This document shows positions 13,601 to 18,723 of a stretch of 64,000 bases of DNA, piece after piece. The translations under genes and the position numbers were made by a program. The notes under the pieces are model-generated. The model saw nothing but the letters and a program-made list of their open reading frames with translations, was not told the origin of the DNA and searched no databases. Location: contig CM035351.1 in NCBI GenBank assembly GCA_020137815.1, positions 62,001 to 126,000 on the forward strand. Direction: 5' to 3'. This DNA comes from Hormiphora californensis (lineage: Eukaryota; Animalia; Ctenophora). How positions within the stretch are numbered: the stretch's first letter is position 1; every line of letters begins with the position of its first letter.

Positions 13601-13846
13601 CAAGGTTACCATGATGGTGATTGGGAAGATCATGGATGATGAAACATAGTCATATGTCTGTCTGTCTGTATGCCACGTTACCTGGCTTGAGAAGCTTGTC
13701 CTTTATCAGATAGGAAAGATGAAGGCTCCGACCCCAGCCAAGCTTCTTCTCACTTCGTCTCCTACTCTTCCCCTTGTTAGAAGAAGGGGGCGGTGGGTTC
13801 TGGCCCCTTTGAGCCTGTTTTTCCAGGGTTTTCCGTAGAAGATCAT
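4618..13846 (-). CDS. MPND: MPN domain-containing protein (RAMA domain, Gln-rich linker, JAMM/MPN+ domain); ~10 exons, approx. 13846-13682, 13492-13209, 12824-12480, 12371-12317, 12213-11374, 11172-10991, 10837-10698, 5409-5232, 5047-4983, 4843-4618
   Basis: RAMA-like: LSYLIKDKLLKPG|SGVLKMEY..FPTPSAWASHCKRLVNPDQKNACGWTTVKYEGKKLDWYK. MPN: LLLMDYHCHLSTEEVCG|YLGGTW and VIGWYHSHPTSSPRPSQHD (JAMM HxH..S..D). The start at 13846 needs one extra G (ATGGAT), which is an inference. Confidence 0.9.
5663..7540 (+). CDS. LINE ORF1 with PHD finger, CCCH-type zinc fingers and an internal 20-aa Ser/Thr repeat
   Basis: CPVC..CLCC..HTDC..CTKC (PHD); CRYFESNRCKYG..CPNYHP, CRRF..C..CKYYH, CSKS..C..CRLTH; 60-bp repeats at ~6715-7235. 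Confidence 0.85.
   Translation: MNDLQKDLLCRVKFSVNSSEHSSSVKAVLDLILSNEGALPTNSNKPRKEDLSATLDAINDFVGEFMTGRSEIWHSNADTKGTMALLISSFFALNPAPSCPVCKTPPPQTLSLGTDCLRCLCCGLPAHTDCYKGVNPKKGIYYICTKCNCDPRRNIVTHKMAVTSNRAAQTVAPAYTTDLKEPPHAGTIITDKLQTQVQSSSSTEDTHSQYSVTTDDKEQTIKDTSHPPNPANSYRRNRTFDRSLIICRYFESNRCKYGITGGSCPNYHPPYCRRFRNYGPCEKLGCTNSDEECKYYHASLCSKSLMGRRCTNKACRLTHIRMSPTTATRVALLPTPPSPNHPNVPIPSSLPTTASSNSSNTTCVNTSSSVPPSTTASPNCSNTTCVNKSSSVPQSTTASSNSSNTTCVNTSSSVPPSTTASPNCSNTTCVNKSSSVPQSTTASSNSSNTTCVNTSSSVPQSTTASPSCSNMDCVAAASSVPQSTTASPSSSNMDCVAAASSVLSPTTASSNGGNMDCVTAASSVPLSHTYVAANGNMGPEKVPIQLPTTAPGPNNIPLDFLRLLENLTTTARLIMGSQFQFNTIPNYQVPDLYTQQPLPMNMYYQHPVHPHHAMGHQYPLGKANM
7585..10614 (+). CDS. LINE ORF2, APE endonuclease plus reverse transcriptase (CR1 type)
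   Basis: ITESWL, GVYRPP, TGDFNLP, LDLVLTN, SDH (APE); NYRPVSLTS, LDYSKAFDKV, GVPQGTVLGPLLF, MFADDTK (RT); LEYCCPGWSP and YWERLKAL (CR1 C-terminus). Confidence 0.96.
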   Translation: MFLLNAHGINPGFSSHKVKLQQIREWVATSHFKIPFFVITESWLNETVFDAEISFEGFTTYRADRVERNQGGVVIYINSDIPVTDVKIFSSTYCEAASVYMETANTVLSGVYRPPASYSDPTRRCPVDHFQSCLQGIESFIKKHEPANVILTGDFNLPMVNWDNLEIKSGLNTLATERQSAELLLSLSERLFLHQVVHSPTRMDKNILDLVLTNNDHLIHDVDVVRTEWSDHDLVKVTLKTQEISGILVESEEPKLYEPQSEFDNFNFNKVTQETWEELNIALHKIDWTDVTSAKDQNEAWEKFRSSIAKVCAQFVPQHSGSRKRRVQKIPKHRRKLLVKKRALVRKLKGAKKKEKECLIQCKRIEELYTALSRIELNMASNIHEDRLREERKILRKIKVNPKAFYTYAKKNKASKSGIGPLKDQNGELHADPAIMANLLQDQYQKVFSEPIEGPVNEQGPPGSPVMSGVTITTDTVVEAIKELSPHTAPGPDKFPAIMLKKCNRALAPVMAELWQASIQTGDIASIFKQQSIVPIYKKDNKSSPANYRPVSLTSQLVKVLERVIRKQMVNFVEENNLLSPDQHGFRSNRSCLSHLIQHIEDVIDDLENGKNADVLYLDYSKAFDKVCHLTLLEKLSGYGIRGDLLDWIRSFLMGRTHSVIVDGVPSNPGPVRSGVPQGTVLGPLLFVLYINNLPDYVLHSKSKMFADDTKLHKSVSSEDDRKLLMDDLQNVFSWALENSMELNDTKFQLLQHGKNLELKQPYQLTSNIVVSGRAEVRDLGVIVDPDLTWKPHITHIIKKANTMASWTLRLFKTRDPQHLLTLYKTYVRSHLEYCCPGWSPHQKGDIQKLEAVQRSYTAKMEGMDGLNYWERLKALKIYSLQRRRERYKILYMWKMLNGLVPKSPSIDFRKTISRSGVIAERRLGKSTCPKGVKTLIHNSFTSSAVGLFNAVPARVKDQLTIEGAKAELDRFLASIPDTPPTRNYSPSNDNSILKWLEARRGQQSVSLT

Positions 13847-13957
13847 TGCTATAATACAGTGGAGGTAGTGGTGAGGTAGTGGAGAGGGAAGAAGTATTTA
13901 ACAACATAGATCCAGGCAGAAGACAATTAAAAAACTTTAAAAAACACTGGTAAAATG

Positions 13958-17267: not shown

Positions 17268-18158
17268 TCATCGGCGACGTTTATAATTTGACTTTACAAA
17301 TTCTGGGTTAAATTGGCTATTGTATTTCTGCTTCATGAACGGCTTTTTACTAAAGTCTAATTTGTCTTTAGACTTCTCAATGCCTAGCAGTTGATTAGTC
17401 CTAGATCGCTCTGCCTCTTCCCTTTTCAATCTCTCCTCTCTCAACTTAGCAACTGATTTTTTGGAAGACGAGGGTCCCTCTTCTGAGCTAGAGTGTCTTC
17501 GTTTTTTCTTCTTGTGCTTCTTCTTTTCCTTCTTTTTTAACTTTTCCTTTAACTTTTCAGGTTTCTTGTCCTTTGAAACTACCTTGCCATACTTCTGTCT
17601 CTCCTCTTTAAACTGCAACACCTTGTCGTGGAAATCTGCCTCGTAATACACAGTCTCAGGTGCTGTAGGTAACGGGACACTGTAGTCAACCTTGCGTCGT
17701 TTCATGTCTGAGATGGGGTCCAATAGATCTATACTGTTAGAAATGTAGCCTCGTTTTCTCTTTGTTGTTGATGGTGGTTGCTCCCCCGGTGCTCTCTGGT
17801 ACCATGGTTTCTCTTCTGCAGTCTCAGCAGATCCAAACCCTAGAGGTTTTAACGCTCCCATTTTAATTTCCCACTCTTTCTGAGCATTCTTGTCATCTGC
17901 TGCCTTTTCCTCATTACCAGTCTTGTTAGCAGTCGTTGAAAACAAGTTGATATGTTCAGCTGGTTGTGTGTAGACTGTGTTTTCATATCTGGCTGCTGAT
18001 TGAGTTCGAAGAAGGGACAACCTCGCCTCACTCTCTGCCTTCAAAACTCTTTGTTTTTCAGCCTCATCAGCAACTCGAGCCTCTTCCTCATCCTTCAAAA
18101 CACGGGCTACGTTCTCTTTAGTCCGCACATGCCACTTCTTTTTTGGTAAGATATTCAT
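17268..18158 (-). CDS. LENG1: Leukocyte receptor cluster member 1 homolog (Cir_N domain), single coding exon
   Basis: MNILPKKKWHVRTKENVARVLKDEEEA N-terminus, HINLF, KPWY, KLREERLKREEAER, KYNSQFNPEF C-terminus. Confidence 0.92.
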   Translation of the reverse strand: MNILPKKKWHVRTKENVARVLKDEEEARVADEAEKQRVLKAESEARLSLLRTQSAARYENTVYTQPAEHINLFSTTANKTGNEEKAADDKNAQKEWEIKMGALKPLGFGSAETAEEKPWYQRAPGEQPPSTTKRKRGYISNSIDLLDPISDMKRRKVDYSVPLPTAPETVYYEADFHDKVLQFKEERQKYGKVVSKDKKPEKLKEKLKKKEKKKHKKKKRRHSSSEEGPSSSKKSVAKLREERLKREEAERSRTNQLLGIEKSKDKLDFSKKPFMKQKYNSQFNPEFVKSNYKRRR

Positions 18159-18723
18159 ATTCTGAAAAGGAATTAAGACAATAATAAAAATTAAGTCAAA
18201 TGACCTCCAGGTGCCTTACTACCTTTGCGAAAAATCGACCGCAATCAAAAGTTGAGCGAAATAATCTGGTAAGAGCAAGTCTGGCGGGGGTTTACGTGGC
18301 TTGACCTCAAAGCCCCTGAAATAGGGGACTACTGCAGACAGAGGTGGCGTAACCGAAGGAAGCTGAGAACGCAGCCCCACCACCCCTCGGCCTCCCCCTA
18401 TAAATTCGTACAGAGGAGGTGGCTAGGAACTGAAATTTTGGGCAAAATGAGCTCAAAATACAGAACTTCGAAATTTTCCGGGCTACGCCCTACGCTACAA
18501 ATTGGTCAGCCCCCTTCGAGAAAAATCATTTCGCCACCCCTGACTAGTGACTAAAGAGTATGCCATATATACGCAATAGTTAATACGCGTATGCAGATAG
18601 GTTCGAGATTTCAGTAGCAAAAAAGGAGGAAACAATTGGCAAACGTTGCTGGCCCCCGCGCAGCGCGGGATAAGGCAGCGCTTTTCAAAGGAAACAAAAG
18701 CAAAAAAAGCGAAACTTGGAAGC

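Follow-up and report, generated by a model that had tools for sequence, protein, structure and literature searches.

Introduction

Operons whose transcripts are resolved by spliced-leader (SL) trans-splicing occur in nematodes, tunicates, flatworms, chaetognaths and Hydra, but Wenzel et al. (2021; PMC7986045) give them as not reported in ctenophores. Ctenophores, possibly the sister lineage to every other animal, trans-splice most of their messenger RNAs (mRNAs). In Hormiphora, a leader of 35-48 nucleotides (nt) is carried by at least 56% of Iso-Seq reads, and a leader is also found in Mnemiopsis (PMC8527503). SL trans-splicing is listed for Pleurobrachia pileus as well (PMC4824033). Here we analysed a window of 64,000 nt from Hormiphora californensis (assembly GCA_020137815.1, contig CM035351.1, positions 62,001 to 126,000; the positions below are those of the window). 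It contains LENG1, ABT1/ESF2, AFG2A and MPND, four unrelated housekeeping genes which lie head to tail on the minus strand. This four-gene cluster itself is real, and it can be put forward, with good support, as a candidate for the first operon in ctenophores. An earlier note on this DNA had proposed a polycistronic unit resolved by trans-splicing, and its premise that ctenophores possess SL trans-splicing agrees with the pervasive leader use described in PMC8527503.

The bicistronic RFC140-flp operon of Hydra (PMC3273482) also belongs to a non-bilaterian with leader trans-splicing. Its genes lie on the same strand, and the gap between them is short and combines a stretch rich in T with a pyrimidine tract and an AG that is unpaired, as in the ctenophore cluster. 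It differs in having two genes, 417 nt from stop to acceptor and a putative poly(A) signal, and it was proved with reporters. The ctenophore unit, a candidate operon, has four genes and gaps of 111-157 nt with no AATAAA, and is apparently conserved across the phylum.

The operons of tunicates (Ciona, Oikopleura) and of the chaetognath Paraspadella likewise hold housekeeping genes and use no specialised leader (PMC7986045, PMC12460157). A very short intergenic distance on the same strand is one mark of SL operons, and all three ctenophore gaps have it; they also fall under the cut-off for chaetognath candidate operons (<250 bp). Ciona operons are mostly without intercistronic DNA (median 1 bp) and those of Oikopleura have about 30 bp, measured between gene ends and not from stop to ATG. 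The tunicate and chaetognath operons were called from leader-bearing reads, whereas the ctenophore unit was recognised in genomic sequence. The SL2 operons of Caenorhabditis elegans resemble it in their intercistronic spacing of about 100 bp and in the U-rich region upstream of the trans-splice acceptor (PMC7986045). No description of an SL2-type specialised leader was found for ctenophores. In C. elegans SL2 operons, the trans-splice site is preceded by AAUAAA at a distance of about 100 nt; the ctenophore gaps differ in that none of them holds this signal and that they share no motif above chance.

No later report of ctenophore operons was found in the literature searched by title and start of abstract, a scope outside which most subscription papers lie. 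The word operon occurs 0 times in the main text of PMC8527503, PMC12221973, PMC13231562, PMC10232365 and PMC12220107, and polycistron and bicistron occur 0 times in that of PMC8527503. The names of the cluster genes are absent from the searched supplements of PMC12221973 and PMC10232365.

Results and discussion

Unpaired splice acceptors precede ABT1, AFG2A and MPND

The shared strand, the start codons and the three stop-to-ATG distances given in the earlier note were all reproduced (Table 1). To score splice sites, models were trained on 13 cis acceptors and 14 cis donors hand-picked in the window, the MPND sites being guided by homology. Each start codon was found behind a pyrimidine tract and an AG, at the places where the note had put them. 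The scores of these AGs fall in the range of the cis acceptors (-7.7 to 18.3 in leave-one-out scoring), and the median over 6247 AGs was -10.9. The acceptor before ABT1 is the strongest, being equalled or beaten by 30 of the 6247. Of 1387 control ATGs, 45 have an AG scoring at least 4.8 within the 0-8 nt ahead of them, and three in a row would occur with a probability of about 3e-5, a post hoc figure.

The statement that the gaps have no clear donor also held. No gap has a GT that scores as high as any of the 14 cis donors (2.2-10.2). When random stretches of the same lengths were taken, 626/3594, 583/3594 and 954/3595 of them (16-27%) lacked a donor of at least 2.2, and the joint value is about 0.0075. 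Because their scores lie in the cis range and no donor-like GT is present in the gaps, the acceptors before ABT1, AFG2A and MPND are statistically real and unpaired within the gaps. The gaps themselves have a T-rich first half and a C-rich, nearly G-free second half, and so resemble a 3' untranslated region (UTR) joined to the end of a cis intron. The TACTAAC reported upstream of AFG2A was confirmed at 16081-16087. Each gap also has a second acceptor-like AG on the minus strand, at 17174 (5.2), 16109 (7.3) and 13946 (2.8), which are possible alternative trans-splice sites.

For LENG1, the earlier note had recorded an upstream donor and had seen none before the other genes. The GT at 18222 is present, but its score is matched by 9% of 5755 GT sites (about 5.7 per kb), it would form an intron of 61 nt, below all 10 measured cis introns (85-5289 nt), and donor-like GTs occur in the other upstream coding sequences (CDS) too. 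Because the donor is weak and the intron would be the shortest in the window, LENG1 itself may be trans-spliced. The stretch 18162-18222 is about as likely to be a 61-nt 5' UTR intron as an outron.

Table 1. Features of the LENG1-ABT1-AFG2A-MPND cluster in window positions (aa, amino acids)
Feature	Position	Strand	Start codon	First exon base after acceptor AG	Splice sites and remarks
U-rich stretch before LENG1, ends in acceptor AG 18163-18162	18162..18222	-		18161	Acceptor score 3.0; donor 18222 score 4.4
LENG1 CDS, 296 aa, intronless, intact	17268..18158	-	18158		About 50% identity to ctenophore LENG1 (Bolinopsis, Mnemiopsis)
Gap 1 (LENG1-ABT1), 146 nt, first half T-rich and 3' UTR-like, second half C-rich and intron-end-like	17122..17267	-		17122	AG 17124-17123, 1 nt before ATG; score 11.1; best GT 1.7
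ABT1/ESF2 CDS, single cis intron 16814-16645, about five frameshifts in assembly	16204..17121	-	17121		
Gap 2 (ABT1-AFG2A), 157 nt, branch-point-like CTAAC/CTGAC/CTAAT	16047..16203	-		16052	AG 16054-16053, 6 nt before ATG; score 4.8; best GT 0.9
AFG2A (SPATA5) AAA+ ATPase CDS, intronless, four frame changes in assembly	13958..16046	-	16046		
Gap 3 (AFG2A-MPND), 111 nt, T-rich, then C-rich half	13847..13957	-		13848	AG 13850-13849, 2 nt before ATG; score 5.4; best GT 0.1
MPND (RAMA + JAB/MPN), the unit's last gene, at least 9 exons	4618..13846	-	13846		

Apparent linkage of the genes in other ctenophores

In Bolinopsis microptera, MPND (XP_063674709.1) and LENG1 (XP_063674712.1) are both on a record of 23,028,209 bp. 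RefSeq numbers of neighbouring genes tend to be adjacent, and accessions three apart leave two numbers for two intervening genes. Further cases came from ENA contigs, on which co-location means records of identical size in bp and not a match by name. Bolinopsis-type LENG1 (P0124, P0125) and MPND exon 1 (P0294, P0295) share contigs of 790,775 and 108,345 bp. LENG1 (P0008, P0135) and AFG2A (P0143, P0297) share contigs of 21,908 and 25,105 bp, and another LENG1 (P0001) is found with AFG2A (P0139) on a contig of 494,622 bp. In total, three of the five AFG2A and MPND clusters examined were tied to a LENG1 record; the remaining two, P0140 (on a 1724-bp contig) and P0141 (with no contig data), were uninformative.

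In the LENG1 tree, a ctenophore clade with 100/100 support has separate deep branches for the window, for the lobates and for each of the two ENA lineages. In pairwise comparison, LENG1 is 52-58% identical between the window and the three other lineages and also among those three. The linkage of LENG1 with MPND or AFG2A thus appears to be conserved in three other deep ctenophore lineages. Lobate and cydippid chromosomes are described as corresponding 'without gene order conservation' after 160-260 million years (PMC10232365), and the largest colinear blocks between Hormiphora and Mnemiopsis have four genes (PMC8527503).

The AFG2A search was restricted to proteins of 220-702 aa and found 2, and the MPND search scored 5 candidates. 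Among the candidates scored, there was no Mnemiopsis AFG2A or MPND partner for Mnemiopsis LENG1 (ACHWQZ_G011973). When the LENG1 alignment was compared with metagenome contigs, 52 loci were obtained, none of them ctenophore-like, with full-length matches 25-35% identical. By tblastn, none of these 52 loci, which come from other eukaryotes and in many cases from short contigs, contained ABT1, AFG2A or MPND. No LENG1 locus was retained from 86 candidates in viral contigs or from 87 in prokaryote genomes. The LENG1 gene calls of P0008 and P0135 extend 12 codons upstream of the LENG1 start, and their last upstream residues (ISV and IPA) are compatible with a CAG 2 bases before the ATG, which would correspond to the acceptor in the window, a weak hint obtained by back-translation.

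Identity of the four genes

The gene names given in the earlier note stand by their relatives, domains and PDB match, that of ABT1 as a lead only. The ten best relatives of LENG1 are 48-54% identical to it, and their clusters include named proteins of Bolinopsis microptera and Mnemiopsis leidyi; LENG1 of non-ctenophore animals reaches at most 37% identity over the full length. For ABT1/ESF2, the matches were to Atlas ESF2_C clusters (first match 0.86), with 9 of the 10 best family-bearing matches in agreement, and the ABT1 pieces had no informative Pfam or PDB match. This assignment also leans on what we take to be motifs of the family.

Human AFG2A was the best PDB match of the AFG2A ortholog P0139. 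The N-terminal half of ctenophore AFG2A is strongly diverged, as 2 proteins matched window 14843-16045 (E 1e-10, 220-702 aa). MPND has a RAMA domain in the window, and both RAMA and JAB were found in an ortholog. A piece of its exon 2 is identical to EukProt EP00116_Pleurobrachia_bachei_P010712 at 97/97 residues, and exon 1 at 55/57.

Relatives have separate full-length records with the same starting methionines for LENG1 (293 aa), MPND (754 aa) and AFG2A (702-708 aa). In the relatives, these genes give separate proteins and not a single fused open reading frame (ORF). Long matches suspected to be fused gene models (P0144-P0146) turned out to be unrelated ATPases.

The operon model and its alternatives

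In the operon model, one promoter upstream of LENG1 would produce a single precursor spanning all four genes. Cleavage and polyadenylation of this precursor would take place in the T-rich first half of every gap, and trans-splicing would add the ctenophore SL at the acceptor AG found 1-6 nt ahead of each downstream start codon. The outcome would be four separate capped mRNAs. This is the simplest interpretation, and the RFC140-flp operon of Hydra was shown to function in this manner (PMC3273482). Leader use at the acceptors before ABT1, AFG2A and MPND is very likely. Given such use, a single promoter is likely, and the full model, with one precursor resolved by SL trans-splicing, is reasonably probable. 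The argument from spacing is that room for a 3' UTR, for a cleavage site and for an acceptor region must be found within 111-157 nt. CpG stands at 4-7 per 100 nt in 18201-18800 and at 0-1 in each gap, which hints weakly at a promoter upstream of LENG1 and nowhere else.

We infer polycistronic transcription, and of the support that the earlier note had cited for it, the unpaired acceptors and the SL of ctenophores remain. The apparent conservation of the cluster in other ctenophore lineages is further support, which the note had no means of seeing. The wider claim, that ctenophores have true SL-resolved operons and that this unit is ancient, having been kept for at least 160-260 million years in crown ctenophores amid scrambled gene order, is evenly balanced in our judgement.

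Rfam gave 0 matches in window 1-28000, and the leader motif was not found in the part of the window searched. A run against sequences guessed to be RNA returned 6 contigs, all less than 90% alike to the window and hence of another species. The matching pieces (LENG1 2, ABT1 1, AAA domain 1, MPND 2) neither bridged two genes nor reached a start codon, and give no evidence either way; one of the two LENG1 pieces is probably a chance match in a lysine-rich tract.

Several points weigh against the operon model. Since the leader is found on most ctenophore mRNAs, an acceptor in front of a start codon is of little value as a sign of operons in particular. The linkage in relatives is deduced from contigs of equal size and from accession numbers, which give neither gene order, strand nor spacing, and it covers LENG1, AFG2A and MPND. 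The splice models are small and built from hand-picked sites, and the assembly is noisy here. Donor-like GTs also lie inside the upstream CDS at 17582 (5.0), 16410 (8.0) and 14386 (4.0), 359-538 nt from the acceptors. GTGTTTT does occur in all three gaps, as had been noted (17198, 16181, 16146 and 13947), but another copy lies 240 nt behind the convergent PDZ gene, and some shared 7-mer arises in 265 of 2000 shuffles of the gaps. AATAAA is indeed absent from the sense strand at 13500-18700, but it is also absent from the 350 nt behind the MPND and PDZ stops, and its absence carries no weight. We rejected GTGTTTT as a signal of operons, the lack of AATAAA as support for one, and the status of the 18222 donor as an established site.

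The main rival to the operon model is trans-splicing of every gene from a promoter of its own, located within the upstream CDS or the gap, with short outrons; the overlap of promoters and 3' ends would then keep the cluster tight and conserved. At least 56% of ctenophore mRNA reads have the leader (PMC8527503), so that monocistronic trans-splicing is probably common. The same leaders are taken to serve monocistronic and polycistronic genes in tunicates, chaetognaths and Hydra (PMC7986045), and overlapping regulatory sequence would conserve linkage too. Yet three internal promoters would have to be kept across three consecutive gaps, these gaps are poorer in CpG than the DNA that precedes LENG1, and the comparable 417-nt gap of Hydra had no promoter activity (PMC3273482). 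We consider separate promoters unlikely. Cis-splicing, in which each downstream gene would start within the gene before it and a non-coding first exon would be joined from a donor in the upstream CDS to the acceptor before the ATG, is more doubtful still. With the donor-like sites listed above, the introns would be 460, 359 and 538 nt long, and the acceptors resemble those of cis introns, gap 2 also having CTAAC branch motifs. GTs that score 4.4 or more are, however, frequent by chance, at 5.7 per kb, three overlapping transcription units would be required, and acceptors directly next to the start codon are to be expected from leader addition where an animal trans-splices.

It is very improbable that the cluster is a decaying duplicate or a group of pseudogenes, or that its genes are simply packed tightly, with these AGs not used for splicing. 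In favour of decay, at least 9 frame breaks, which the earlier note does not mention, are spread over ABT1 (about five), AFG2A (four, relative to P0139) and MPND, whose ATG is out of frame with exon 1, while two long interspersed nuclear element (LINE) ORFs of at least 1000 aa stay intact in the window. The ATGs of both AFG2A and MPND are out of frame with the homologous ORF in this assembly. The AFG2A orthologs P0139 and P0143 nevertheless start with MV(Q/S)QSP at the ATG named in the earlier note, and the MPND orthologs with MDMDDLLRK or MDDLLRK at theirs. The MPND start is short by about 10 nt relative to the protein records, and the P. bachei record P0141, 100% identical over exon 2, is intact at this broken start. 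Across their aligned stretches, the frameshifted genes carry indels with no in-frame nonsense codons, and orthologs elsewhere are intact and linked. Homopolymer noise climbs steeply at 28-38 kb, flanking a 100-N gap at 30741, and resembles an unpolished long-read contig end. Because of the indels without nonsense codons, the intact P. bachei record and the homopolymer noise, we infer that the frameshifts in ABT1, AFG2A and MPND are assembly errors and that the genes are not pseudogenes.

The apparently conserved four-gene unit offers a precise test case for ctenophore operons. If the operon model is true, ctenophores would be one more lineage in which leader trans-splicing was accompanied by operons. 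It would also explain residual microsynteny, as the few blocks shared by cydippids and lobates (at most 4 genes, PMC8527503) would largely be operons. The annotation of ctenophore promoters and 5' ends would change, and an intercistronic element would become available for co-expressing transgenes, as was done in Hydra.

Surroundings of the cluster

Downstream, the unit is bounded by a convergent PDZ gene ending at 2629. The 2.5 kb or so upstream of LENG1 abound in inverted and direct repeats, and beyond them lies a weak seven-transmembrane-like gene. Between that gene and LENG1, at 18724-20765, the repeats form a cluster resembling miniature inverted-repeat transposable elements, and related arms recur near 200-500, 51000 and 53000-57000.

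Many introns contain tandem copies of exon-intron junctions, in which a donor or acceptor recurs together with part of the exon, and which give several decoy splice sites per junction (13600-13492, 13208-12920, 11364-11250, 10990-10932, 120-1530 and 60100-63000). The homopolymer-rich, read-error-like region at 28000-38000 probably represents unpolished contig ends and not biology. An apparently intact two-ORF LINE lies at 5648-10614 on the plus strand, antisense in the 5.3-kb intron of MPND. Its ORF1 has 630 aa from stop to stop and no Pfam match, and its endonuclease-reverse transcriptase ORF has 1095 aa. A second intact reverse transcriptase ORF was found at 46775-49780.

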